In this document: positions 495 to 42,177 of the stretch, in pieces
How positions within the stretch are numbered: position 1 is the stretch's first letter
How the letters are laid out: each line of letters begins with the position of its first letter
IMG/VR virus record: IMGVR_UViG_3300049783_001607
Length of the DNA stretch: 64,000 nucleotides
Source of the DNA: a virus
Reading direction: 5' to 3' (one strand)
Program-made: the position numbers and the translations under genes
The notes under the pieces: model-generated
Database searches by the model: none
Told to the model about the DNA's origin: nothing
Seen by the model: the letters and a program-made list of their open reading frames with translations, nothing else

Positions 495-1142
495 TTATAG
501 ATTTTCTTTAATCCAATCGTTTAGAAAAAATACTCCATCTGTTCCTATTGTAGCTTCATTATTAGCTCTTAACATATCATGCATTAATTGAGAAACTTCA
601 CTTATAGGTAGCATCTTTTCTTTTACAGAAGTAATATTCACAGTATTGTCTTGGTTTAGTTTGAGTTTACTAGACACTTTATGAATACCATTTTTCCCTT
701 TAAAAGATATTACACTACAGTTAGTATATTCAACCTCAAACTCTCCATTAGAGTTACTAGCAACAAACTCTTTTAAAAATGATTGTTGTAGTTCAGGTAT
801 TAAATCATAAGGAATATATTTATTTGATAAATTAAGCTTAGGATCAGTAGTCGCTATAATTTTAAACTCTGTATCTGATTTAAGTAAAGTTTTTTCTGAG
901 TCATTCTTAAATATGTTGTTTGATTTAATATTATAAAACCAATCATCTACTTTAATAGGCTCTACATCTTGTGATACTGTTATGTATACGTGTTGGTTAC
1001 TGCCGTAGTTTTTATTATCTTTAGAATAAATTCCTGATTCCAGGTACATTAAATATGGAGGGAAAAATTTCCTGTTAACTGTTCTATGTATATTAATGTT
1101 ATCGTCTGTCGGCAGCATTACTACCTCTATTTTGTGCATCAT
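495..1142 (-). CDS. Conserved-block/hypervariable paralog family protein
   Basis: Blocks VVMLPTD, SQDVEPIK.DDW, KIIATTDPKL, LQQSFLKEF, LKLNQDNTVNITS, WIKENL. Confidence 0.85.
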   Translation of the reverse strand: MMHKIEVVMLPTDDNINIHRTVNRKFFPPYLMYLESGIYSKDNKNYGSNQHVYITVSQDVEPIKVDDWFYNIKSNNIFKNDSEKTLLKSDTEFKIIATTDPKLNLSNKYIPYDLIPELQQSFLKEFVASNSNGEFEVEYTNCSVISFKGKNGIHKVSSKLKLNQDNTVNITSVKEKMLPISEVSQLMHDMLRANNEATIGTDGVFFLNDWIKENL

Positions 1143-28683: not shown

Positions 28684-30174
28684 TTATTTTTTATATATTA
28701 GTCCGCCTTTTATAGAATTTTTTATATTATCACTATCGAAGAACCCTTTTTTATTTACAAGGCTCTTGGTATACTTAGGCGCAGCAAACATAGTAAAATT
28801 TGAATCTAGCTGCTCAGTATTAAATTGAGGCTTATATATCCTAGCGGCATTTGCTTCAAGCGCTCTTTTACTTGCATCTTTAAATATGTTTAAATTTTCA
28901 TCTATATCATAATCAAGTTTTCCATGAGATAAAAAAGGCCTGCCATAAAAGTTCTCTACTTTTCTTCCATTAAGGTTTAGATCCCAAATATCGTTATATT
29001 CCATCTTACCTTTATAAAATCTTCTGTTATAATTTCCCATTATATTAGTGGTATTAAAATCAACGGAACTATCAATTCCTTTCTTCTTTATATCCTCTAA
29101 CTGTTTAATATCTTTTAGATAATGAGGCATAGTTCTATTTTGGTCTTTCATTATCATATCCATACCAGGTAGTCGTTTATCAGGCAATTCTTTAAGTAGT
29201 TGTTTTTCCCTATTTATAGAGAAAATTTCCCTATTATTTAATTCACCTTTATTGTATAAAGGATGGTTTTTAGGGGCTGATCCAGCTACTCTAAAAGTAT
29301 TGTTTTTTTGTGGTATACCAGAATATAAATTCCAGGCGTCTTGTCTAGGTTTTGATATAACATCCGCACCTCTGTGAAGGTCATCTGCTAATGTAGGATA
29401 CATATCAACTAATTTTTTAGAGTTTTTATCCCCTTTTATTATTCTTTTAGGTATATTTAATAATCTTTTTGTAGCATTCTCATAACCATAAGGGGTCATA
29501 TAATCTGTCATTACCTCGGAAACCCCTGGAAAATAGCCTTTTCTTTGCGCTGAGGTAATACCTATTTTGCTCATTTGCATATCTTTAATATCCTCTAAAC
29601 TATAACCAGCTTTAAGACCTTCTGACTGTATTTGTCTCAGCTCTTTACCTACAGGATGAAAAGTATCTACGGTTTTTCTTAATGGTACCCGAGATTTTTT
29701 TATAAATGCTTTTGAAGCGCTTGTTATTGCTTTTTTAGCTAGGGGTATTGGTATTACACCTGCAGCACCTTCTAGAATTTGCATCCCATCTAAAGTTGCA
29801 GTACCTTGAATAACGTTTTTAGTGTCATAAGCATATTGAGCAGGGTTGACCACATCTAGAGCATAGTCTAGCGTATTTCTTGGGCCTCTTGAAAAATTAT
29901 CAGGTAAGTCTTTATTTCTAGCAGCATAACCTGCGGCTGTTAGAGGATTGAGCGCTATCTCAATAATCTTACTAAAAAAACCTTGTTTAGGCTCTGAAGG
30001 TCTTATTGATTGACTATTAGCGCTATCAGTCATAGCCTGTATGTTTGACTCCTTTCTTGTATTAGCTATATAGTCTAAAACAGATTGCTCGTCTTGTTTA
30101 GATACTATCTCTCTTGTTTTAATTCCTACTTGAGCCTTAATCGCTTTACCTTTATTTTTATCGTAATATATCAT
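28684..30174 (-). CDS. Hypothetical protein, probable virion cargo
   Basis: N-terminal KAQVG and C-terminal KGGLIYKK motifs; GTATTATATA directly upstream. Confidence 0.7.
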   Translation of the reverse strand: MIYYDKNKGKAIKAQVGIKTREIVSKQDEQSVLDYIANTRKESNIQAMTDSANSQSIRPSEPKQGFFSKIIEIALNPLTAAGYAARNKDLPDNFSRGPRNTLDYALDVVNPAQYAYDTKNVIQGTATLDGMQILEGAAGVIPIPLAKKAITSASKAFIKKSRVPLRKTVDTFHPVGKELRQIQSEGLKAGYSLEDIKDMQMSKIGITSAQRKGYFPGVSEVMTDYMTPYGYENATKRLLNIPKRIIKGDKNSKKLVDMYPTLADDLHRGADVISKPRQDAWNLYSGIPQKNNTFRVAGSAPKNHPLYNKGELNNREIFSINREKQLLKELPDKRLPGMDMIMKDQNRTMPHYLKDIKQLEDIKKKGIDSSVDFNTTNIMGNYNRRFYKGKMEYNDIWDLNLNGRKVENFYGRPFLSHGKLDYDIDENLNIFKDASKRALEANAARIYKPQFNTEQLDSNFTMFAAPKYTKSLVNKKGFFDSDNIKNSIKGGLIYKK

Positions 30175-30295
30175 ACCTATATAATACTAAATATTATTGA
30201 TTACTAAAAGCTTAATGTTAACCTATTTAAGGTAGTATCTAAACACTTCCTTGTAGGGGCTCTATAAGTACACTGATAATCAACACGTTATAGAA

Positions 30296-30345
30296 GGTTG
30301 AGGGTCAAAAGTTACATGTTTGAGGGTCAATTACTGCAGGTTTTA
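30296..30345. repeat. Iteron-like repeats GAGGGTCAA, second cluster
   Basis: ggttgagggtcaaaagttacatgtttgagggtcaattactgcaggtttta. Confidence 0.65.
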
Positions 30346-30359
30346 TTTATAAAAATATA

Positions 30360-30725
30360 CTATCTAACAAATTTACTATTTACTTCGTGTATTCTATTAA
30401 CAAGCCAGCCTAGTAGATAGCATTCTGCCTCATCATTATGCCTGTCTAGCAGCTGATCAACGTCTATAAATATTTTATTTACTAAATGTTTAGCTTCGTG
30501 TGCAATTATACCTGGAGTAGGATATTGCTTACTAGACGCATAAAAACAGCAATAGTGATGGTTGTTTAAAGTATATACAAACCCATCATATTTTCGGTGG
30601 TTAAATTCTAAATAAATATCCTTTTTTTTAAAGAATTTATCTAGTTTTTTAGGAGAAGAGTAAACAATCACTGTGAAAGTAAGACCATACAAAGGAGTAC
30701 GAAAATTTTTTTTTAGTAGTTTCAT
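30360..30725 (-). CDS. Small HExxH metallopeptidase-like protein
   Basis: IIAHEAKH...EAECY; TACCTTTG promoter directly upstream. Confidence 0.7.
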   Translation of the reverse strand: MKLLKKNFRTPLYGLTFTVIVYSSPKKLDKFFKKKDIYLEFNHRKYDGFVYTLNNHHYCCFYASSKQYPTPGIIAHEAKHLVNKIFIDVDQLLDRHNDEAECYLLGWLVNRIHEVNSKFVR

Positions 30726-30854
30726 ACTTCAAAGGTAACAATTAAAAATTAAAGTAGTATCTTTATAGAAAGAAATACTTTGCGCCAACCGGGCATGTAT
30801 CGCTACCTTCTCGTTGGACACTATAGCCTCTATTTATTTAGAGGCTATTTTTTG

Positions 30855-30930
30855 TGGGATGAGTAAGAATCGAACTTACGCAATGTCGCTGGGCTTCAAC
30901 CAACCGCTCTACCAACTGAGCTATCACCCC
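30855..30930 (-). tRNA. tRNA-Phe(GAA)
   Basis: Cloverleaf; anticodon loop TTGAAGC. Confidence 0.92.
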
Positions 30931-30940
30931 ATTATTTTTG

Positions 30941-31014
30941 CGCGGCCGGAGAGACTCGAACTCCCGACACCTGGTTTTGGAGACCAGTGCTCTGGCCAAC
31001 TGAGCTACACCCGC
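30941..31014 (-). tRNA. tRNA-Trp(CCA)
   Basis: ctggt-CTCCAAA-accag. Confidence 0.93.
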
Positions 31015-31025
31015 ATTTATTATTG

Positions 31026-31099
31026 AACGTCTGATGGGACTCGAACCCATGATCTTTCAGATTTGCAGTCTTTTTCCTTAGCCGCTCGGACACAGACGT
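31026..31099 (-). tRNA. tRNA-Cys(GCA)
   Basis: Loop CTGCAAA, U73. Confidence 0.9.
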
Positions 31100-31111
31100 A
31101 TTTAATAATAG

Positions 31112-31186
31112 CTCCTTAGGTTGGACTCGAACCAACAACCCCCGCATTAACAGTGCGATGCTCTAACCAGTTATAGCTACTAAGGA
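31112..31186 (-). tRNA. tRNA-Asn(GTT)
   Basis: tcgca-CTGTTAA-tgcgg. Confidence 0.93.
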
Positions 31187-31325
31187 ATATTTATATATTT
31201 GTAAACATAAAGCCAGTTCATATGAGGCTACAGAAACATCATCTATATCTTTAGCCCAAGTAACTATACCGTTAGGTAACACCACTTTTAAAAACCCGTC
31301 TTCTTGTTTAGTTATAATCATATTG

Positions 31326-31410
31326 TAGAAAGAAGAGGACACGAACCCCAAGGTATTACCCTCCCACTCCTTAGCAAGGAGGCCCAGTACGCCTGCCTGG
31401 TTTACTTTCT
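31326..31410 (-). tRNA. tRNA-Ser(GCT)
   Basis: ctcc-TTGCTAA-ggag, long variable arm. Confidence 0.85.
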
Positions 31411-31416
31411 ATTTTG

Positions 31417-31499
31417 CAGAGAATAAAGGAATCGAACCCTCAAGTATAACCTTGGCACGGCGTTCAAAACCGCTTATGCACCGCTGCATGCTACTCTCT
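31417..31499 (-). tRNA. tRNA-Ser(TGA)
   Basis: gcggt-TTTGAAC-gccgt, long variable arm. Confidence 0.87.
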
Positions 31500-31504
31500 A
31501 ATTG

Positions 31505-31594
31505 TGGGAATGATAGGATTCGAACCTATAATGGGGTCTTTCAACACCTACAGATTTACAGTCTGCTCGCTTCAGCCAATTTGCATACACGCCC
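31505..31594 (-). tRNA. tRNA-Tyr(GTA)
   Basis: gcaga-CTGTAAA-tctgt, long variable arm. Confidence 0.92.
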
Positions 31595-31604
31595 GATTTA
31601 AAAC

Positions 31605-31636
31605 AAAAAAAAAGACCCATTAATTAAAATGAGCCT
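31605..31636 (-). terminator. Attenuator terminator of tRNA operon C
   Basis: AGGCUCAUU/AAUGGGUCU stem plus long U tract, about 10 nt before tRNA-Tyr. Confidence 0.85.
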
Positions 31637-31661
31637 CTAGTTTGGTTGTATATTTTCTTAA

Positions 31662-31736
31662 TTACCCAAATAGCTCATCTGATCCGTTATAAAACGAATT
31701 ACAGAAATTACTATATGACCAACTTGTTACTTTCAC
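31662..31736 (-). CDS. Leader peptide C, MKVTSWSYSNFCNSFYNGSDELFG (GTG start)
   Basis: 13 consecutive codons for Ser/Trp/Tyr/Asn/Phe/Cys, the tRNAs downstream. Confidence 0.88.
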   Translation of the reverse strand: MKVTSWSYSNFCNSFYNGSDELFG

Positions 31737-31758
31737 TGTATTATTATTATTTAAGATG

Positions 31759-31766
31759 CAAATGTA
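31759..31766 (-). promoter_or_regulatory. -7 promoter element of tRNA operon C
   Basis: TACATTTG matches Bacteroidota TAnnTTTG. Confidence 0.8.
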
Positions 31767-31830
31767 CTACTTTATTTGTAATTATAAAAGAAAAAAATAC
31801 TTTTAATGGTTATTATTGCCTTGGGCTCCC

Positions 31831-32025
31831 TTAGTGATAGGGATAATTGTCATAAGTATCTTGGAAATACGATTGCCAAATAACCTGTTCTGTAGTAGTA
31901 ATAAGCTTAAATTTTTTCCAGGCCCCTTTGGGAAAAAGCTCTTTTACTGTATTAACTACATCAGCTATATTTGTACTTTCGGTAACTTCGATAGTTTTTT
32001 TTGTGGTATCTATTGTTAATTTCAT
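31831..32025 (-). CDS. Hypothetical protein
   Basis: 64 aa ORF coupled to 32022..32348. Confidence 0.65.
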   Translation of the reverse strand: MKLTIDTTKKTIEVTESTNIADVVNTVKELFPKGAWKKFKLITTTEQVIWQSYFQDTYDNYPYH

Positions 32026-32348
32026 TTATTTAAAAGTTTGAATGCTTTTTCTAAATCTATAAAAAAAATTAAAGGTTTATCCCCTATCAAAGTAGAATGC
32101 ACTTCATCTGAAAGTCGATTTTTGCTAAATTCAACACTGCCAGAATGTATGTCCCATTTAATTGAATTAATTGATTCTTTTCTTTGAATATAAGTAGCAG
32201 ATCCAGAAGAGTCTACATATTCAATCTCATCTTCTCTTTCGTATATTCTAAGCGAGCCTATTGGCATTTTAGTGTTTTGATTTTTAAAACTATTATCAAA
32301 GACTATAGTAGATAATGTTTCCGTCTTTCTTATTTGTTTATTTTTCAT
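32022..32348 (-). CDS. Hypothetical protein
   Basis: 108 aa; TACCTTTG promoter 4 nt upstream. Confidence 0.7.
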   Translation of the reverse strand: MKNKQIRKTETLSTIVFDNSFKNQNTKMPIGSLRIYEREDEIEYVDSSGSATYIQRKESINSIKWDIHSGSVEFSKNRLSDEVHSTLIGDKPLIFFIDLEKAFKLLNK

Positions 32349-32427
32349 AAATCAAAGGTAGTAAAAATAATGTTAACATGCAATAAGACAGCATTGTAAC
32401 CTGTATTTTACTATTTTAAATACTAAG

Positions 32428-32505
32428 TGGTCCTGGAGTGAATCGAACACTCATGTGACCTAGTTACGATTTCAACTGATTATGAGTCAGAGCCGATACA
32501 GGACC
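32428..32505 (-). tRNA. Atypical tRNA(CAT), probable Ile2 (lysidine), lacking a D-arm
   Basis: Perfect GGTCCTG/CAGGACC acceptor, GAGTG-TTCGATT-CACTC T-arm, ctga-CTCATAA-tcag. Confidence 0.7.
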
Positions 32506-32513
32506 TTAATTAG

Positions 32514-32587
32514 AAGAGGTAGAGGGATTCAAACCCCCAATCGGCAGGATAGAAACCCGCTGCGTTATTCAGTTACGCCATACCTCC
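32514..32587 (-). tRNA. tRNA-Arg(TCT)
   Basis: gcggg-TTTCTAT-cctgc. Confidence 0.88.
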
Positions 32588-32631
32588 ATTACATAGTTTT
32601 AAGTAAATTTAGGTAACTACAGACCTAGTTG

Positions 32632-33108
32632 TTATCCATGTATTTCTTTTAGTTTGGCTGAAGATAAAAGTACCATAACTAGTATTTCAGCTAATAAAAA
32701 AGATATATAATCTGTAAAATAACCTATAACAAATACGCTTACTGCTGAAATAACTACTGCAATACCTACTTTTTTATCTAAAGATGTCTCCCTGTTCCAT
32801 AACAGTGTAAAACAAGCTAATAAAATTGTAACTACAGTAACTATATTATGTAAACTTGTATGTTTATACATATCAAAAGCTAAAATTAATCCCATACCTA
32901 AAGCTAATAGATATTCAGTAGCGTATTTTTTTACTCGTGCATTCAAAAGAAAAAACCAAGAAGCAGTCAAGTGCATTAAATTATAAAATACATTATTATC
33001 AGCCGTAGCGTAAGCACTTAAAGAAGTTAAATCTTCTCCTCTTGTAACCCATATAAGAGCTGAAAATAAAATAGATAATAAAAGCAATATTGTTTTTAAC
33101 AGTTTCAT
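32632..33108 (-). CDS. Multi-pass membrane protein inside tRNA operon B
   Basis: About 6 hydrophobic segments. Confidence 0.75.
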   Translation of the reverse strand: MKLLKTILLLLSILFSALIWVTRGEDLTSLSAYATADNNVFYNLMHLTASWFFLLNARVKKYATEYLLALGMGLILAFDMYKHTSLHNIVTVVTILLACFTLLWNRETSLDKKVGIAVVISAVSVFVIGYFTDYISFLLAEILVMVLLSSAKLKEIHG

Positions 33109-33194
33109 AGTAATATAAGTTTAGTTTGAGTAAAAATACAACAATTAGCTGTAAATTCAAAGTTACTTTGCAATGATTAAATTTATTATTTTTG

Positions 33195-33267
33195 TACAGT
33201 GGGTAGGAATCGAACCTACGACATCTTTCGTGTAAAAAAAGCGCTACTACCGCTGAGCTACCACTGC
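33195..33267 (-). tRNA. tRNA-Val(TAC)
   Basis: ctttt-TTTACAC-gaaag. Confidence 0.88.
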
Positions 33268-33359
33268 AAGTAGGACCAATTATTTTATTAATCGGTCCCG
33301 ATAAAAGACCTATTTTGGGACACTTCAAAACTTCACGAGAGGTGTAATAGGTACTGTTG

Positions 33360-33432
33360 ATCCCAAGGTCAGGTTCGAACTGACGACATGCTCCTTACAA
33401 AAAAGCCGCTCTACCAACTGAGCTACTCGGGA
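33360..33432 (-). tRNA. tRNA-Thr(TGT)
   Basis: gcttt-TTTGTAA-ggagc. Confidence 0.88.
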
Positions 33433-33525
33433 ATGTCAAAGCTAAGGTATTCTCACGTCGATCGTTACCTATAAGGATGATAGCCCCTTGCTTTGATAGT
33501 TGTCTAGGATATCGCCTAAACTCTG

Positions 33526-33600
33526 CAGTCTATACGGGATTCGAACCCGTGATCTCCGCCGTGACAGGGCAGCGTCCACTCCTGGCTGGACCGATAGACT
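33526..33600 (-). tRNA. tRNA-Asp(GTC)
   Basis: ctgcc-CTGTCAC-ggcgg, G73. Confidence 0.93.
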
Positions 33601-33659
33601 ATTTGTGCCCTATCTAAAACCCTTTCCGGGAAAAGCCGCTGAGCACGTCTTAATTCTTG

Positions 33660-33732
33660 TGGCGAGAGAGGGATTCGAACCCCCGACCTGATGGTTATGA
33701 GCCACCCGAGCTGGCCACTGCTCTATCTCGCT
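33660..33732 (-). tRNA. tRNA-Met(CAT), initiator-like
   Basis: 1:72 mismatch, GAGC/GCTC D-stem, loop CTCATAA. Confidence 0.88.
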
Positions 33733-33741
33733 ATATTTTTG

Positions 33742-33813
33742 TTGCGACGATGGGATTTGAACCCATGACCTAGTAGATATGAACCACTTGCTCTACCTCT
33801 GAGCTACATCGCG
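33742..33813 (-). tRNA. tRNA-Met(CAT)
   Basis: agtgg-TTCATAT-ctact; C1:A72 mismatch, so initiator vs elongator is ambiguous. Confidence 0.85.
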
Positions 33814-33950
33814 ATATGTTTATACAATAAATCTTCTTCGTTTTTTCCAGGTTGCACGTTTCGATTTGTTAAATAAAAAAGAGTTATCTCTTCTAACTTC
33901 TTCTCTAGTTTTTACTTGTTCACTCATTTTCTTACTTTATTAATTATTTG

Positions 33951-34024
33951 TGCAGGATGCGAGGATCGAACTCGCTCTGTTCTAGATTGGAAGTCTAGCG
34001 CACCACCACTTATGCGTATCCTGC
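33951..34024 (-). tRNA. tRNA-Gly(TCC)
   Basis: ctaga-CTTCCAA-tctag. Confidence 0.92.
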
Positions 34025-34270
34025 GTTTGTTGGAACAGATGGATTTGAACCGCCGACATTCGTAGTATCAGTACGATGCTCTACCCCTGAGCTATGCTCC
34101 ATTATTTCTTTTCTTACTTCTTCATCTAAAAATTTTTTGTTCTTATTTTTTCTAGCTTCAAGTCCTATACCTTGACAATACCAGCAGTTACATTCATACC
34201 TTCTTTCTAGCTCTCTTTTACTATCAGTATACTTTTTATTAAATTTATTTTTTCTATATGTTCTACTCAT
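34010..34270 (-). CDS. Small basic CxCxxC protein within tRNA operon, reading through tRNA-Ile
   Basis: MSRTYRK...CNCWYC. Confidence 0.6.
   Translation of the reverse strand: MSRTYRKNKFNKKYTDSKRELERRYECNCWYCQGIGLEARKNKNKKFLDEEVRKEIMEHSSGVEHRTDTTNVGGSNPSVPTNAGYA
34030..34101 (-). tRNA. tRNA-Ile(GAT)
   Basis: tcgta-CTGATAC-tacga. Confidence 0.92.
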
Positions 34271-34282
34271 AATTAAATTTTG

Positions 34283-34354
34283 TGCCTCTGGCCAGTACTG
34301 ATCTGGCGGTCCTCTGTTTAAAAGACAGATGCTTTACCATTAAGCTACAAAGGC
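34283..34354 (-). tRNA. tRNA-Lys(TTT) with atypical T-loop
   Basis: tctgt-CTTTTAA-acaga; T-loop ATCAGTA. Confidence 0.85.
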
Positions 34355-34514
34355 AATATCCCCTGCAACTAGTCAGGAGTAATTAACGTTTAAACTTCTT
34401 AATAAATTTTTTCATAATTTTTAACGGTGAAATGTTTGCTCCACTAAATCTCATACTATTAGCAGAAAATAAATATTCATGTTTGTTCATATCATTATAA
34501 TTTAGTTAATGTTG

Positions 34515-34587
34515 TGGAATCGGAGGGAATCGAACCCTCAGGACTGTCGTTGCAAACGAAAGTGTCTAGCCAATACAACACGACCCC
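34515..34587 (-). tRNA. tRNA-Ala(TGC)
   Basis: G3.U70, loop TTTGCAA. Confidence 0.88.
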
Positions 34588-34589
34588 AT

Positions 34590-34621
34590 AAAAAAAGCTC
34601 CTATCTTTCGAAAGGAGCTTT
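34590..34621 (-). terminator. Attenuator terminator of tRNA operon B
   Basis: AAAGCUCCU/AGGAGCUUU stem, GAAA loop, U tract, 2 nt before tRNA-Ala. Confidence 0.88.
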
Positions 34622-34643
34622 ATGTTGTTTGTAATGTTTTAAA

Positions 34644-34724
34644 TTATCCACATATAACGTCCTTCCAAAGAGCTTGATCTCTCCCTGTTTTAACCGTAAC
34701 CGCTATGTTCATAATTGTTTTCAT
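34644..34724 (-). CDS. Leader peptide B, MKTIMNIAVTVKTGRDQALWKDVICG
   Basis: 15 of first 16 codons read by the 11 downstream tRNAs. Confidence 0.88.
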   Translation of the reverse strand: MKTIMNIAVTVKTGRDQALWKDVICG

Positions 34725-34755
34725 TGAAAATTGTTCTTTTTTTTACTATTGGTTG

Positions 34756-34763
34756 CAAATGTA
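34756..34763 (-). promoter_or_regulatory. -7 promoter element of tRNA operon B
   Basis: TACATTTG. Confidence 0.8.
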
Positions 34764-34810
34764 CTTCATTATATTATACTTTCCTAACAAAAAATAAATT
34801 ATTTGTATAG

Positions 34811-34885
34811 AATCTCTCCAGGGACTCGAACCCCGAATCTCTTAGTTCGTAGCTAAGTGCTTTAATCCAATTAAGCTAGAGAGAT
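34811..34885 (-). tRNA. tRNA-Arg(ACG)
   Basis: cttag-CTACGAA-ctaag. Confidence 0.92.
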
Positions 34886-34904
34886 ATTTATAAAGGTAAT
34901 ATTG

Positions 34905-34990
34905 TGCCCAAAGCGAGAGTCGAACTCGCACGACCTTTACAGATCCACAGATTTTAAGTCTGCTATGTCTACCAATTCCATCATGAAGGC
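34905..34990 (-). tRNA. tRNA-Leu(TAA)
   Basis: gcaga-CTTAAAA-tctgt, long variable arm. Confidence 0.9.
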
Positions 34991-35082
34991 ATTATAACGT
35001 CGTCGGGAATCACCTAGCTGCACTCATCTTATCTAGGATTAAAGTTTCGACACCTATCTGCTTATTATTTTCCCAACTATTG

Positions 35083-35168
35083 TGTCTACGAAGGGATTCG
35101 AACCCATAAACTTTTTCAAGAACTGGTTCCTAAGACCAGCGCGTTTACCCAATTTTCGCCACATAGAC
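35083..35168 (-). tRNA. tRNA-Leu(TAG)
   Basis: ctggt-CTTAGGA-accag, long variable arm. Confidence 0.92.
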
Positions 35169-35228
35169 AAATTACGATTTCAAAAACTTCTTGTACAGAA
35201 GATAACCTAATCGTTTGGTTAATTTGTG

Positions 35229-35302
35229 GGTGAAAGCTGGGGCTCGAACCCAGGGCTCCAGGACCACAACCTAGCGCTTTAGCCGGTTAAGCGACAATCA
35301 CC
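35229..35302 (-). tRNA. tRNA-His(GTG)
   Basis: ctagg-TTGTGGT-cctgg; G-1:C73. Confidence 0.9.
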
Positions 35303-35336
35303 ATATAATCTATATATTGTATATATAAATTGATAG

Positions 35337-35407
35337 ATGAGGTAAAGAGGCTCGAACTCTTGATTCGGCCGTCAAAGGGCCGCGTGTTACCGCTACACCA
35401 TACCTCA
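35337..35407 (-). tRNA. tRNA-Gln(TTG)
   Basis: cggcc-CTTTGAC-ggccg; U1-A72. Confidence 0.92.
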
Positions 35408-35418
35408 TTATTACATTG

Positions 35419-35490
35419 TACTGCGACGGAGAATCGAACTCCGGTTACCAAGGTGAAAGCCTGGCGTCTTAGCCACTGGACGACCGCAGC
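35419..35490 (-). tRNA. tRNA-Glu(TTC)
   Basis: ccagg-CTTTCAC-cttgg. Confidence 0.92.
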
Positions 35491-35523
35491 ATATTTTATA
35501 TCCGCTCATGATATAAATTATTG

Positions 35524-35600
35524 TCTAAGAAGTGAGAATCGAACTCACGAATCTCTTGTTTCCAAAACAAGCGGGTTCTTCCGTCTGCCCTAGCCCCTAG
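35524..35600 (-). tRNA. tRNA-Pro(TGG)
   Basis: cttgt-TTTGGAA-acaag; C1-G72, A73. Confidence 0.88.
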
Positions 35601-35615
35601 AATTTATTATAAACT

Positions 35616-35645
35616 AAAAAAACCTTCTAAATTAATAGAAGGTTT
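35616..35645 (-). terminator. Attenuator terminator of tRNA operon A
   Basis: AAACCUUCUA/UAGAAGGUUU stem plus U tract, 15 nt before tRNA-Pro. Confidence 0.88.
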
Positions 35646-35674
35646 CTTTATGTGTTTAATTATGACAGTTAAAT

Positions 35675-35758
35675 TCAGCCAAGATCGAGTACAAGATTCC
35701 TTCCATTGATTAACAACGGTTGTTCCAGTAATTCGATATGACGTAATGATCTGTTCAT
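35675..35758 (-). CDS. Leader peptide A, MNRSLRHIELLEQPLLINGRNLVLDLG
   Basis: 11 of codons 5-16 read by the 7 downstream tRNAs. Confidence 0.88.
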   Translation of the reverse strand: MNRSLRHIELLEQPLLINGRNLVLDLG

Positions 35759-35762
35759 ATTG

Positions 35763-35770
35763 CAAATATA
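35763..35770 (-). promoter_or_regulatory. -7 promoter element of tRNA operon A
   Basis: TATATTTG 4 nt before leader ATG. Confidence 0.8.
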
Positions 35771-35838
35771 CAATTATAGTTTAATATATAACTAATAAAA
35801 GAAAAATATTTTGTATATTTATCGATTAAAGACTTATT

Positions 35839-36630
35839 ATGGCCGATAAACCTAACAGAATTAAAATTGATACTCATAGAGGGAAAGAAAATACTGCTTT
35901 CGGTAAGCATTCAAGAGTACCTTTTAATATAGAAGATCTTGATTCTAGAAGTCTTTTAATCCTAGCTTTTATAGACATCGATCAATTTTTAGACTCGAAA
36001 TTTAAAACTAAAAACATTAGACGAATTATAAGACTGGAGGATTTTTCTTTTACTTTAGGTGTAAGTAAAAACACGGTTAAAAAGTGTTTAAAAGAATTGG
36101 AGACTAAAGAGTTAATAACTTCTACATATAAACACAGTGTAGGTACTTCGTATATATCTAATATAGTCAAACTGCATGTAAAATATCAAATAATAACTTA
36201 CTCATTTATTTCTAGACAGGATTTATCTCATTCAGTAAAAGCTTTTATATTAAAGGTTATAATGCTTGGAGAAAATAGAATATCTAACATACGAAACGTT
36301 ACAGCTTTAGTAAAAGAAACTAGTACTCCAAGAAGAAAAGTAAATGAAGTTTTGGACTCTTTGTTATTGCAAGGATATATATTGGATCATCCTACAGAAA
36401 AGTCAATTCAAATATTGGATGTATCTGGTATAATGTTAGATTCGGAAGAAAAGTTAATGCTTGAACACAGACAATTAAGAGAAGCCATATCTTTTTATGA
36501 AACTAATCTTCCTACTTTTAGTGAAGATGATACAGAAGAGATTTCTAGATTAAAGTCTGAAGTAGGGAGACTACTTAAAAAAATAGAAATGATCCAAAAT
36601 GGCAAAAGTAAAAATCATAAAAAGACATAG
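35839..36630 (+). CDS. Winged helix-turn-helix DNA-binding protein (replication initiator/regulator-like)
   Basis: LGVSKNTVKKCLKELETKELI HTH; second HTH-like segment; C-terminal coiled coil. Confidence 0.65.
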   Translation: MADKPNRIKIDTHRGKENTAFGKHSRVPFNIEDLDSRSLLILAFIDIDQFLDSKFKTKNIRRIIRLEDFSFTLGVSKNTVKKCLKELETKELITSTYKHSVGTSYISNIVKLHVKYQIITYSFISRQDLSHSVKAFILKVIMLGENRISNIRNVTALVKETSTPRRKVNEVLDSLLLQGYILDHPTEKSIQILDVSGIMLDSEEKLMLEHRQLREAISFYETNLPTFSEDDTEEISRLKSEVGRLLKKIEMIQNGKSKNHKKT

Positions 36631-39444: not shown

Positions 39445-40006
39445 ATTTACTTTAGTAGGTGGGAAAGTAGTGCTTGATCCTAATATAGTACTATTTGAGC
39501 CGTTACATAAATTGTATAAAAGTAAAAACGGGCCTAAATATTTACAAGTTATTTATTATATGAATTCTACGGATCCTGATAATCCGTTTAGAGATTTTGA
39601 TCCCTTTGTATTAGAAGAAAATGTTTTAATGACCATTTTTAAAAAGAATAGTTTTGAATCTTTGAAAATGTCTGGCGAGTTAAAACTTTTATTCCAGGAG
39701 GCAGAAGATATTTTTATAAAGCATAACAGCACCCCTGAAAAAAGATTACTTAAAGCAGTAGATAAAAAACTTGATGAAATATCTACTATGCTTAATGAAA
39801 ACATACCTAAAATAGAAGAATCTGTTAGTGAAATACATGGAACAAAGTTTAGTACTAACTTAAATATAATGCTTAATGCTTTTACTAAAATAGAAGTTAT
39901 TATGAAAAGTAAAACTTTATTGCAAAACGCGGTTCTTAAAGCTGACGGTGCAGGTAAAGTAAGAGGCGGAGGTTCAACTAGTTTTAGAGAAAGGGGACTT
40001 AAATAA
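39437..40006 (+). CDS. Conserved protein upstream of terminase (possible small terminase subunit)
   Basis: Position and translational coupling to TerL; helical. Confidence 0.5.
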   Translation: MIKFTLVGGKVVLDPNIVLFEPLHKLYKSKNGPKYLQVIYYMNSTDPDNPFRDFDPFVLEENVLMTIFKKNSFESLKMSGELKLLFQEAEDIFIKHNSTPEKRLLKAVDKKLDEISTMLNENIPKIEESVSEIHGTKFSTNLNIMLNAFTKIEVIMKSKTLLQNAVLKADGAGKVRGGGSTSFRERGLK

Positions 40007-42177
40007 TGAGAATAAGTGCAAAAACAAAGTACGATCGGTACAACAAAAATAAACTTCCTTTTCTAAATAGGTCGGATGACAAAATAATGAATGGTCATTG
40101 GGATGTTACAGAAACAGTTGAATTTTTAACAGGTATACGTACAGGCGAGGAGGAAATAAGACTAAAAGATTACTTAGTCTATAGACCTTTGCCTAAAGCT
40201 ATTACTGCTTTAACCGTAAAACCTGATGTACATCCGCAGAGCTATGACATGCAGATGTACTATAAGAAAATAAACAAGGCCATGGAAGAAGGAATCTATA
40301 TAGGTTCTGAGTACTATAACCCTATGTTTTGTTTTTGGCTTATTATGTTTATGTTTGAAATCCCATTATATGATGACAAAGGTAACCCTCTAGACGGTTT
40401 TGAAGTAGGTAGACCTTTGTATTCTAATATTGATAGATACGTTTTTGATCTTTTATGGAAAGGGTACAAAACTAGAAAGTACGGAGCCATAATGGGAGGA
40501 AGAGGTATAGGTAAATCTTTTATTACTGATTCTGTAATGGCTTGGTACTATATGATTTTTGATAGCCAAGAGTTAATTGTATCTGCAACTTCTGATCCAA
40601 TTGTAGAAGAAGCTTGGGATAAAGTTACAGACACTATTAAAGCCATAGAAAAAGAATACCCGGGATACAGACAAAAGCAAAAAACCAGCTCAACTAAAAA
40701 AATTGTAGCTGGAGAAGAGTATTTTGATAGTAATCACGATGAACAGACAAGAGGGTCTGGTAACGAAATTAGAAGAATAACTTACGCAGATAATCCTAAC
40801 GTTACAAGGGGTAGAAGACCTCATTTTCAACACATAGAAGAATTTGCATCATTCCCGTCACACCCGTCAAAAGGATCTCTTAAAAATTGTTTGGGACAAT
40901 CCAAAGGTTCTTGGAAAATAATGGGTTCTATTATGAAAGCTTTTGTAATGTTGACTGGTACAGGGGGATCTGTAAATAATAAAGACGCTGAAGACGTGTT
41001 TACTAATCCACGAGGTTTTAATTTGCTTCTTGTAAACGAGTGGGGAAGAGAGACAGGTATATTTATTCCGGCTTATTTAAAGTATGGAGGAACATGGGAG
41101 CATTCTGGAGTACCTAATATTGAACTAGCTATGAGACAGCTGATTCAATCTAGAAAAGATTTAGAGTCAGATCCTGTAGCATTTATGCAAGAATTACAAG
41201 AATTCCCTATAACATTAGAAGAAGTTTTTACTGTAACAGGTACAAATATATTTAATCAAGACAAGATTGCTGAGCAGCTTACTAAATTAAAAGTGGCGAC
41301 AGTTAAACCTTGGAAAGAAGGAAGACTTGACTATATAATGGATAAAGAAGGTAACCCTACCGGAGTAGAGTTTATAGAAGTTAGAGGAGGTAAAATTATA
41401 ATTGTAGAGCCGCCAGATATAGAATCGAATGGCCAAATAATGAATAATTTATATGTGGGCGGAGTGGATAGTATTGATCAAGGTAAAAAAGATTCTTTAG
41501 TAGACGGGTCTAAGCTAGCTGTAGCAATTAAAAAGCGTATATCTAATAACATGTTTAGCAGGACTAGTCAAGTATACGTTGCATTTTATAATGAAAGATC
41601 TGACGATGTTAGATGGGATTATGAAAATGTACTTAAGCTGTCGATGTATTACAACGCTAAGTTAAATATTGAGTATACCAAAATAAATATTATATCTTTT
41701 TTTAGGGATAAAGGTCAGTTATGGAGAATATTAAAAAGACCTTCTATTGCTATAGGGTCTAATGTCAGCGGCGCTAAAGCCAGTACTCTTTTAGGTACTC
41801 CTGCAACAGGTGCTGTAATCGATCACCAGGATCAAAAATTTGCGGATTATATTGACGATTATTACTATCTAATTATGTATATTCCAGTTTTGGAACAATC
41901 TAGAGATTACTCTAGAGAAAAAAGGACTGCGTTTGATTTTGTTGTAGCCTGCGGATTAGCGGAACTAGCTGATGAAGATTTTTTAGGTAAGCCTGCTTCC
42001 ACTACTGGTACAGCCTCAAGCGACCTTGCTATGATAGGTGTCTATAGAGATAGAAATGGTAAAAAAAGATGGGGGCCAATACCTAAAAAAGAAACCGAAA
42101 TTACTTCTATTGCAGAAGAAGAATTACAGAGTGATAATAGCTCTGACGCATATAAATGGGTAGTTGATAGTCCATAG
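40006..42177 (+). CDS. terL: Terminase large subunit
   Basis: Walker A GGRGIGKS, Walker B HIEE, TGTGG motif III, RNase H-like YVGGVDSID. Confidence 0.93.
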   Translation: MRISAKTKYDRYNKNKLPFLNRSDDKIMNGHWDVTETVEFLTGIRTGEEEIRLKDYLVYRPLPKAITALTVKPDVHPQSYDMQMYYKKINKAMEEGIYIGSEYYNPMFCFWLIMFMFEIPLYDDKGNPLDGFEVGRPLYSNIDRYVFDLLWKGYKTRKYGAIMGGRGIGKSFITDSVMAWYYMIFDSQELIVSATSDPIVEEAWDKVTDTIKAIEKEYPGYRQKQKTSSTKKIVAGEEYFDSNHDEQTRGSGNEIRRITYADNPNVTRGRRPHFQHIEEFASFPSHPSKGSLKNCLGQSKGSWKIMGSIMKAFVMLTGTGGSVNNKDAEDVFTNPRGFNLLLVNEWGRETGIFIPAYLKYGGTWEHSGVPNIELAMRQLIQSRKDLESDPVAFMQELQEFPITLEEVFTVTGTNIFNQDKIAEQLTKLKVATVKPWKEGRLDYIMDKEGNPTGVEFIEVRGGKIIIVEPPDIESNGQIMNNLYVGGVDSIDQGKKDSLVDGSKLAVAIKKRISNNMFSRTSQVYVAFYNERSDDVRWDYENVLKLSMYYNAKLNIEYTKINIISFFRDKGQLWRILKRPSIAIGSNVSGAKASTLLGTPATGAVIDHQDQKFADYIDDYYYLIMYIPVLEQSRDYSREKRTAFDFVVACGLAELADEDFLGKPASTTGTASSDLAMIGVYRDRNGKKRWGPIPKKETEITSIAEEELQSDNSSDAYKWVVDSP

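Follow-up and report, generated by a model that had tools for sequence, protein, structure and literature searches.

The phage and its tRNA array

The window, by which we mean the whole stretch of DNA analysed (64 000 nucleotides of IMG/VR record IMGVR_UViG_3300049783_001607), encodes a terminase large subunit (40006–42177), a portal protein and a major head protein and is thus derived from a phage. The terminase is a distant relative of the terminases of crAss-like phages, and the phage is a marine member of that group. The sequencing runs that contain the window sequence are ice metagenomes (DNA), with no RNA run among them. A search for relatives via a neighbouring 496-aa gene found none, and a metagenome search with the terminases added only a duplicate (L015) of the related contig L005 and some relatives without tRNA arrays.

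The minus strand carries a tRNA array that extends from 35600 to 30854, in which ARAGORN identified 22 tRNAs, with Rfam in agreement. Three further tRNAs were recognized by eye, namely tRNA-Ser(TGA), tRNA-Ser(GCT) and an atypical tRNA with a CAT anticodon. Both tRNA-Ser genes (minus strand) have long variable arms and were missed by ARAGORN. The first (31499–31418) has the anticodon loop UUUGAAC, as judged by eye, and gives only a weak tRNA-Sec match in Rfam (24.6 bits); the second (∼ 31395–31325) has the loop UUGCUAA, likewise by eye. Once both are counted, no amino acid is left without a tRNA in the array (20 of 20). Between tRNA-Lys and tRNA-Ile there is a small ORF that encodes a basic product with a CxCxxC motif (34010–34270, minus strand, in the window; 8825–8977 in L001). 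Its frame continues into the tRNA-Ile gene with no stop before it, and a comparable mini-ORF with a Cys motif is found 3' of the tRNA array of phage phi17:2.

Within the array, the sequence TAYATTTG occurs on the minus strand only at 35770–35763, 34763–34756 and 31766–31759, and each of these sites heads one leader cassette (hereafter A, B and C). The more general motif TAnnTTTG is not over-represented in the window (87 found versus 98.7 expected).

Organization of cassette B and tRNA block B

Cassette B lies in the interval from the end of tRNA-Arg(ACG) at 34810 to the start of tRNA-Ala at 34587 (minus strand). It opens with a Bacteroidota-type −7 promoter box, TACATTTG (TAnnTTTG; 34756–34763, minus strand), recognized by its motif; a box of this type also stands at the head of each homologous cassette in five other phages. 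A TTTG at 34791–34788, 24 nt 5' of the box, would be the candidate −33 element. Spacing of 24 nt between these two elements is longer than usual, and we do not claim the TTTG as part of cassette B. The box is followed by an A-rich 5' UTR of ∼ 27 nt and by a leader ORF of 26 codons plus TAA (34644–34724, minus strand; MKTIMNIAVTVKTGRDQALWKDVICG), which has homologues at the equivalent place in the contigs L005 and L013 and in the phages phi17:2/phi4:1, Panino and phi38:1. Codons 1–16 of this ORF (34677–34724) form the putative sensing stretch. Also within the ORF, a hairpin that we refer to as 1:2 (CAGGGAG/CUCUUUG, 34666–34687) is predicted by folding and may possibly serve as a pause or anti-antiterminator element. 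Codons 20–25 contain the 5' strand of a predicted antiterminator (GGAAGGACGUUAUAUGU, 34650–34666), whose 3' strand (ACAUAAAGCUCCUUUC, 34610–34625) overlaps the 5' arm of an intrinsic terminator. The terminator (34590–34621) begins after a spacer of 22 nt and has a 9-bp stem (AAAGCUCCU/AGGAGCUUU) followed by a U7 run, with 2 nt between the end of this run and tRNA-Ala. The stem, which pairs 34621–34613 with 34602–34594, has a predicted energy of −14.8 kcal/mol (z −6.69); it was missed by a hairpin pattern scan because the loop is 10 nt long. The whole order of box, ORF, antiterminator, terminator and tRNA is packed into 177 nt and leaves no room for a promoter 3' of the terminator. The contigs of four runs show no variation inside the leader ORF or the switch, the only variants of cassette B, in the ice-metagenome runs X9 and X10, being a T>C change at 34732 and a 1-nt deletion at 34737, both in the A-rich 5' UTR.

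The tRNA genes behind this leader (block B, 32428–34587, minus strand) are, in order, Ala, Lys, Ile(GAT), Gly, two genes with CAT anticodons, Asp, Thr, Val, Arg(TCT) and the atypical CAT tRNA. According to ARAGORN and Rfam, the block runs from Ala(TGC) (34587–34514) to Arg(TCT) (32587–32513), the other anticodons being TTT (Lys), TCC (Gly), GTC (Asp), TGT (Thr) and TAC (Val); four small ORFs lie among the genes. The CAT tRNA at 32505–32428 (minus strand) was called by neither program. Its alignment with the canonical third CAT tRNA that occupies the same array position in L005 extends over the acceptor stem and the T arm. Both of these elements and the anticodon loop are intact, most of the D arm is absent and the variable region carries an insert of ∼ 17 nt.

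A search of the minus strand from 34587 to the terminator of cassette C (31638–31611) found no strong hairpin followed by a U run, which fits a single transcript that includes both Arg(TCT) and the atypical CAT tRNA. Weak TAnnTTTG boxes inside or after the block (33444–33437, 33165–33158 and 32360–32353) could be internal promoters, judged by motif only, and the extension of the transcript to 32428, which had been part of the original prediction, is an inference.

Codon content of leader B

The starting point of this work was the proposal that the first codons of the leader match the tRNAs encoded behind it, so that one short peptide would gate their transcription as an attenuator. The 16 codons on which that proposal rested are exactly those of the ORF at 34724–34644 (minus strand). 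Counted by hand against the anticodons, 15 of the 16 fall into the amino-acid families of block-B tRNAs, with AAC (Asn) as the sole exception, and all ten specificities are sampled. Under strict wobble rules the match drops to 13 of 16: the two GTT codons fit only if the U34 tRNA-Val reads four ways, and the ATA codon fits only if one of the CAT tRNAs is an Ile2 tRNA. The AAC, at codon 6, is conserved although tRNA-Asn belongs to block C. Each regulatory codon is present only once or twice, with no tandem runs such as those of the his and trp leaders, so the sensitivity of the leader to any single tRNA is uncertain.

Hand calculations put the share of block B at ∼ 42% of sense codons, given the base composition of the window; in a typical proteome we estimate it at about half, a figure that was not measured on phage genes. 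By the same kind of calculation, 15 block-B codons out of 16 have a probability of ∼ 3e-4, with the caveat that the 16-codon window was chosen post hoc, and 20 block-B codons among the 25 that follow the start one of ∼ 3e-3; finding all ten specificities within 16 codons contributes a further factor of ∼ 0.07. With about half of ordinary codon usage falling within block B, cassette B taken alone is no more than moderately improbable. Of the three cassettes in the window, B is the weakest, and on its own we would call it suggestive; to be convincing, the codon match has to be taken together with the parallel cassettes and the homologues.

These numbers leave an opening for a simpler account, namely that the hairpin and U run are a terminator or insulator of block A, or else an RNA-processing or stability hairpin, while the ORF is fortuitous or unrelated and its codon match reflects chance and purine-rich composition. 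The region does contain many short ORFs, and the hairpin would also stop read-through from block A. Against this account, the promoter box is located upstream of the terminator, the U run is placed only 2 nt from tRNA-Ala, and each of the two further cassettes matches its own block. For these reasons and those given below for the homologues, we consider this account very unlikely.

Parallel cassettes A and C

Cassette A has its box at 35770–35763 (minus strand), and the ATG of its leader follows 4 nt after the box, so that the mRNA is probably leaderless. A leader A ATG located 4–5 nt after TAnnTTTG is seen in five phages (the window, 35757, minus strand; L005, 5336; L013, 5400; L001, 4716; L035, 4863), all of which probably make leaderless leader A mRNAs; the B leaders have a 5' UTR of ∼ 20–30 nt. 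In the window the run of leader A reads TTA CGT CAT [ATC] GAA TTA CTG GAA CAA CCG TTG TTA, and it precedes block A, which comprises tRNAs for Pro, Glu, Gln, His, Leu(TAG), Leu(TAA) and Arg(ACG). Cassette C (box 31766–31759, terminator 31638–31611, minus strand) has a leader with 13 consecutive codons that all specify Ser, Trp, Tyr, Asn, Phe or Cys and lies in front of tRNAs for Tyr, Ser, Ser, Asn, Cys, Trp and Phe. In a 3 × 3 table of leaders against blocks (14/8/4, 2/20/3 and 2/6/15), the association gives a chi-square of ∼ 38 with 4 degrees of freedom (p ∼ 1e-7, calculated by hand). Antiterminators that compete with the terminator are predicted in cassettes A and C as well (z −3.35 and −2.45, respectively).

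Most leaders end in Gly-stop (A, B and C of the window, at 35675, 34644 and 31662, minus strand; the B leaders of L005 and L013; the B and C leaders of phi17:2), and the B leaders of Panino and phi38:1 end in Val-Leu-stop.

Homologues of cassette B in other phages

Cassette B, followed at tRNA-Ala by the same block-B gene order, is present in five other phages from four lineages, which makes six with the window; the gene order is common to L005, L013, phi17:2, phi4:1, Panino and phi38:1. In the leader peptides given below, hyphens set off the run, i.e. the stretch of block-B codons. Two of them are marine crAss-like contigs: L005 (identical to L015), with 81% identity in the terminase, encodes MNS-VMDIATIVRVGGIDKI-SSGGTVAG, with 16 of 16 run codons in block B, and L013, with 77% identity, encodes MN-TAINIAVVIMTGADMA-LEGSTWYG (15 of 16). 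The Cellulophaga phages phi17:2 and phi4:1 (Lightbulbvirus), which are identical here, encode MQL-TKTGITVIDKTKGARA-YLGDTVIG (16 of 16), the Maribacter phage Panino encodes MRAATGIAIIGRTKDK-PLGRISVL (16 of 16) and the Cellulophaga phage phi38:1 (Callevirus) encodes MKTIMNIATDIRTKGVK-LLGRSRVL (16 of 17). The first eight leader codons of phi38:1 are the same as those of the window at the DNA level, and the L005 leader differs from that of the window by an in-frame insertion of 3 nt.

The leader B peptides diverge, and the run of 16–17 codons stays within block B. The residues that replace each other in the run are chemically unlike (K/R/M, R/G/A, T/I/V) and never leave block B, whereas the residues after the run are drawn from all blocks. 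Thus, the first two thirds of the ORF appear to be constrained by the decoding tRNA and the last third by RNA pairing. The homologues share a common ancestry and therefore are not independent samples. The ORF, its run confined to block B, the in-frame indel and the position of its stop are retained in six diverged phages, which argues against a fortuitous ORF.

The same divergence bears on the idea that the product acts in trans, either as a small RNA (the terminated leader transcript of ∼ 160 nt) or as a functional 26-aa peptide, with the attenuator-like fold being secondary. A precedent exists in rnTrpL and peTrpL of Sinorhizobium, where terminated attenuator RNAs and leader peptides are reported to have trans functions (PMC6614838, PMC7298713), and most leaders share a Gly-stop ending for which we have no explanation. 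The peptide is, however, poorly conserved beyond its block composition and nothing in the window points to a target, and we give this possibility very little weight.

Several features of the related arrays deserve to be recorded. In phi38:1, an atypical tRNA-Ala(TGC) that ARAGORN missed and the RefSeq annotation lacks lies directly after the leader terminator (L053, 2540–2615, plus strand), and the leader itself is annotated as gp066, with a TTG inside the promoter box as its start. Panino has a permuted tmRNA between tRNA-Asp and tRNA-Thr (L035, 7132–7340, plus strand; Rfam RF04321, 62 bits). ORFs with HNH endonuclease-like motifs are found within the arrays of L013 (3985–4462, minus strand) and L005 (∼ 800–1010, minus strand); the latter lies directly 5' of tRNA-Tyr, at the place where leader C would be expected, which suggests that homing endonucleases remodel these arrays. 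A search of IMG/VR with the pattern TTTTTTNNGGGGTCGTGT returned 16 loci, which we dismissed as chance matches because ARAGORN found no tRNA-Ala in the 14 that were scanned.

Leader codons change together with tRNA content

Block B of L013 consists of Ala, Ile, Gly, CAT, Asp, Thr, Val and CAT tRNAs. Neither tRNA-Lys nor tRNA-Arg(TCT) was found in it by ARAGORN or Rfam, and its spacers are too short to hide one. Its leader B has no Lys codons and no Arg codons, whereas in the runs of the other five B leaders Lys is encoded one to three times and AGA occurs once or twice. The same phage lacks tRNA-Leu(TAA), and the Leu codons of its leader A are CTA and CTT only; the other four A leaders mix TTA with CTN codons. 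More generally, whenever Arg appears in a run, a B leader encodes it with AGA and an A leader with CGN, in accordance with the tRNA-Arg of the respective block. Apart from the conserved AAC, the mismatches between leaders and blocks are a single CGA codon in leader A of L013, for which no tRNA-Arg(ACG) was detected, and the ATA codons of phi38:1 and Panino, which have only one CAT tRNA each. The AGA codons of Panino seemed unmatched at first, until a weak tRNA-like gene was found between Val and Met that has UCU in its anticodon loop and a variable arm that is long (L035, 7608–7687, plus strand; sub-threshold, 25 bits in Rfam). Block-B tRNA content and leader codons thus differ jointly in one relative, L013, as inferred from gene calls and codon counts.

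This observation helps to distinguish the proposed tRNA-matched switch from an attenuator of the same anatomy that senses amino-acid starvation or general translation capacity, so that tRNA output simply follows host physiology (growth state, shut-off). A ribosome stalls for want of an aminoacyl-tRNA whatever the cause, and ten specificities sampled once or twice each would suit a measure of how fast elongation proceeds overall better than a sensor of one species. A general gauge, however, would have no need for three leaders whose codons each match their own block, and its Lys and Arg codons would not be expected to vanish together with the tRNA genes, as they do in L013. As for starvation, extra tRNA would do nothing to relieve it. 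We regard such a sensor as unlikely.

Alternative folds of the switch

It had been proposed that GGAAGGA(C)GUU in the leader pairs with the terminator arm. Folding confirms this pairing (GGAAGGA:UCCUUUC) and predicts a longer helix than the one suggested, in which GGAAGGA-C-GUU-A-UAUGU (34666–34650) pairs with ACAUA-A-AGC-UCCUUUC (34625–34610; −13.3 kcal/mol, z −4.46, with none of 200 shuffled sequences as good). This helix is the minimum-energy fold computed with the 3' arm of the terminator withheld. The 3' strand of the helix overlaps the 5' arm of the terminator, hence the two folds are mutually exclusive.

Under the same conditions, a segment in codons ∼ 18–23 is predicted to pair with the 5' arm of the terminator in all homologues: GGAAGGAUCU:AGAUCCUUCU in L013 (−22.8 kcal/mol, z −7.3), GGAGGA:UCCUUC in L005 (−18.8 kcal/mol, z −1.8), CUAGGGG:CCCUCCUAG in phi17:2 (−18.0 kcal/mol, z −2.65), GGGAGG:CCUCCC in Panino (−21.8 kcal/mol, z −3.8) and GGGGAGG:CCUCCCC in phi38:1 (−21.6 kcal/mol, z −3.5). 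In these predicted folds, the complementarity between antiterminator and terminator is kept in six phages while the bases differ, which speaks against a simple terminator. RNAalifold recovers the antiterminator helix, with compensatory changes at three of its six pairs, and 96.6% of the cells in the alignment pair, a level reached by 3 of 500 shuffles. The covariation count is weak, as it comes from only five sequences that we trimmed at the predicted helix ourselves. The two strands are, moreover, purine-rich and pyrimidine-rich, respectively, and remain 83% paired when slid by one position.

The distance from the stop codon to the terminator arm is 20–25 nt in all six phages (counted by hand), and a hairpin just 5' of the antiterminator strand, abutting or overlapping it, is predicted in the window, L013, L005, phi17:2, Panino and phi38:1 alike. 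The overlap is 1 nt in the window and ∼ 6 nt in phi17:2. As hairpin 1:2 of the window overlaps the antiterminator by one base only, the classical state in which the absence of a ribosome leads to termination is not enforced there.

Proposed mechanism

Cassette B shows the four features expected of a leader-peptide attenuator at the level of sequence. The 5' leader, from the box to tRNA-Ala as the first controlled gene, contains a short ORF; its regulatory codons correspond to what the operon supplies, in the window and in the homologues; an intrinsic terminator is placed directly 5' of that first gene; and a mutually exclusive antiterminator is available, with the position of the ribosome deciding the fold, although this last point relies on an inferred ribosome geometry. 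Everything that could be checked in the sequence agreed with the original prediction: a host-type box, an ORF enriched in block-B codons, a terminator at tRNA-Ala and a competing helix are all present, and the reading gains further support from the conservation of the design in six phages and from the joint change of tRNA content and leader codons in L013. We therefore think it likely, from comparative sequence evidence and without any expression or ribosome data, that cassette B is a multivalent leader-peptide transcription attenuator that is matched to, and gates, block B. If so, the phage probably makes block-B tRNAs only when ribosomes decode the corresponding codons slowly, which no experiment has shown. 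Translation of the ORF, the direction of the switch, the step from stalling to read-through and the sensitivity to single tRNAs are all inferred.

In the proposed scheme, the host RNA polymerase would start a few bases past the TACATTTG box and a ribosome would translate the 26-codon leader. With fast decoding of all block-B codons, the ribosome would arrive at the TAA (34646–34644) and cover the 5' strand of the antiterminator (34666–34650); the terminator (34621–34590) would then form and transcription would end two bases before tRNA-Ala. If any aminoacyl-tRNA among Met, Lys, Thr, Ile, Ala, Val, Gly, Arg(AGA) and Asp were scarce, the ribosome would lag within codons 1–16, 34666–34650 would pair with 34625–34610, no terminator would form and the whole of block B would be transcribed. 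RNase P would remove the leader from read-through transcripts. The net effect would be a negative feedback that matches the tRNA output of the phage to decoding demand.

The geometry of this scheme, which resembles that of the trp, thr and ilv leaders, relies on our estimates from standard ribosome footprints and was not computed. A ribosome with its A site at the TAA would cover ∼ 34661–34631, i.e. most of the 5' strand of the antiterminator, whereas one held at any of codons 1–15 would reach ∼ 34668 at most and leave 34666–34650 free. Codon 16, the last of the codon-matched run, is just the point from which a stalled ribosome would start to mask the antiterminator, and this would explain why the match is confined to codons 1–16. 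The original prediction described the leader as an OR gate; it may equally sum the decoding delays, and the sequence cannot tell the two apart.

The promoter of cassette B is of the host type. Phage phi38:1 lacks an RNA polymerase and depends on that of the host (PMC5335546). Infection RNA-seq data exist for this phage, and the paper that describes them makes no mention of the leader (PMC5335546).

Relation to known systems

In enterobacteria, attenuation by leader peptides senses Thr and Ile codons in the thr leader and Ile, Leu and Val codons in the ilvGMEDA leader, whereas trpL, hisL and pheL are single-amino-acid cases. What these leaders have in common with cassette B is a promoter, a short ORF with many regulatory codons that is translated (in cassette B, by inference), a terminator immediately ahead of the first gene and an antiterminator whose 5' strand would be covered by a ribosome at the stop; sensing of more than one amino acid per leader is likewise common to both. 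They differ in that the enterobacterial leaders (for pheL, see PMC3082878) control biosynthetic enzymes and contain runs of codons for one to three amino acids, whereas cassette B would control tRNAs, the sensed molecule itself; it samples about ten specificities once or twice each, is phage-borne and has a Bacteroidota-type promoter context.

The T-box riboswitches of Firmicutes (RF00230) resemble cassette B in that the state of tRNA decides, through an antiterminator and a terminator, the read-through of genes of the translation apparatus. In contrast to cassette B, which has an ORF, a T-box binds uncharged tRNA directly and without translation, with one tRNA per element. Searching 30000–36500 with cmscan at E values of up to 1 gave no match to the Rfam models of the Thr, His, Leu, Trp and Phe leaders or of the T-box; the matches obtained were to tRNA genes, along with a few weak chance matches to unrelated families. 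With no model matched and an ORF present, we rejected direct tRNA binding for cassette B. A match of the Phe leader model to the Panino terminator (E 0.9) was set aside as noise.

In Escherichia coli, the pheST genes for phenylalanyl-tRNA synthetase are subject to attenuation through the pheM leader. Here, as in cassette B, a leader-peptide attenuator acts on a component of the decoding machinery and not on a biosynthetic pathway; the pheST leader, however, senses one amino acid, precedes protein-coding genes and is not a phage element. Short ORFs among the tRNA genes of phage T5 were reportedly noted in papers from the 1980s. We found no account in the literature of leader-peptide control of tRNA genes. 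What is new in cassette B is that the target consists of tRNA genes, that about ten specificities are read by one leader and that the tRNA set is split into blocks with matched leaders. With tRNA genes as the target, the leader would sense what its own operon makes.

A related setting is provided by phage T5, whose tRNAs are reported to counter the PARIS defence, an example of phage tRNA sets acting against tRNA-targeting defence (PMC11464382). The replacement of depleted or cleaved host tRNAs by phage tRNAs is a plausible role for the genes behind cassette B too, although the T5 case concerns the tRNAs themselves, with no regulatory leader described. Along these lines, the three leaders might together constitute a phage-borne alarm for tRNA depletion, with the cassette moving along with its tRNA block between unrelated phages of Flavobacteriia. 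Cleavage or depletion of any of ∼ 25 host tRNA species, whether by an anticodon nuclease or by phage-driven codon demand, would then stall the matching leader, and the stalled leader would switch on the block that holds the replacement tRNA; the module would be exchanged among crAss-like phages, Callevirus, Lightbulbvirus and Panino. This extension is untested, and we offer it only tentatively, as a possibility that may well turn out to be wrong.

It is an open question what phages need their tRNA genes for and how these genes are controlled. If the attenuator reading is correct, cassette B would let decoding capacity regulate itself by direct feedback, since an operon would be shut off by the very molecules it yields. 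Classical attenuation, in which a leader senses one to three amino acids, would be broadened to about ten specificities in a single leader. Cassette B would also supply a reason for the splitting of phage tRNA arrays into blocks and link these arrays to the contest of defence and counter-defence over tRNA cleavage. As the same cassette is found in cultured phages of Cellulophaga and Maribacter, the idea can be tested now.
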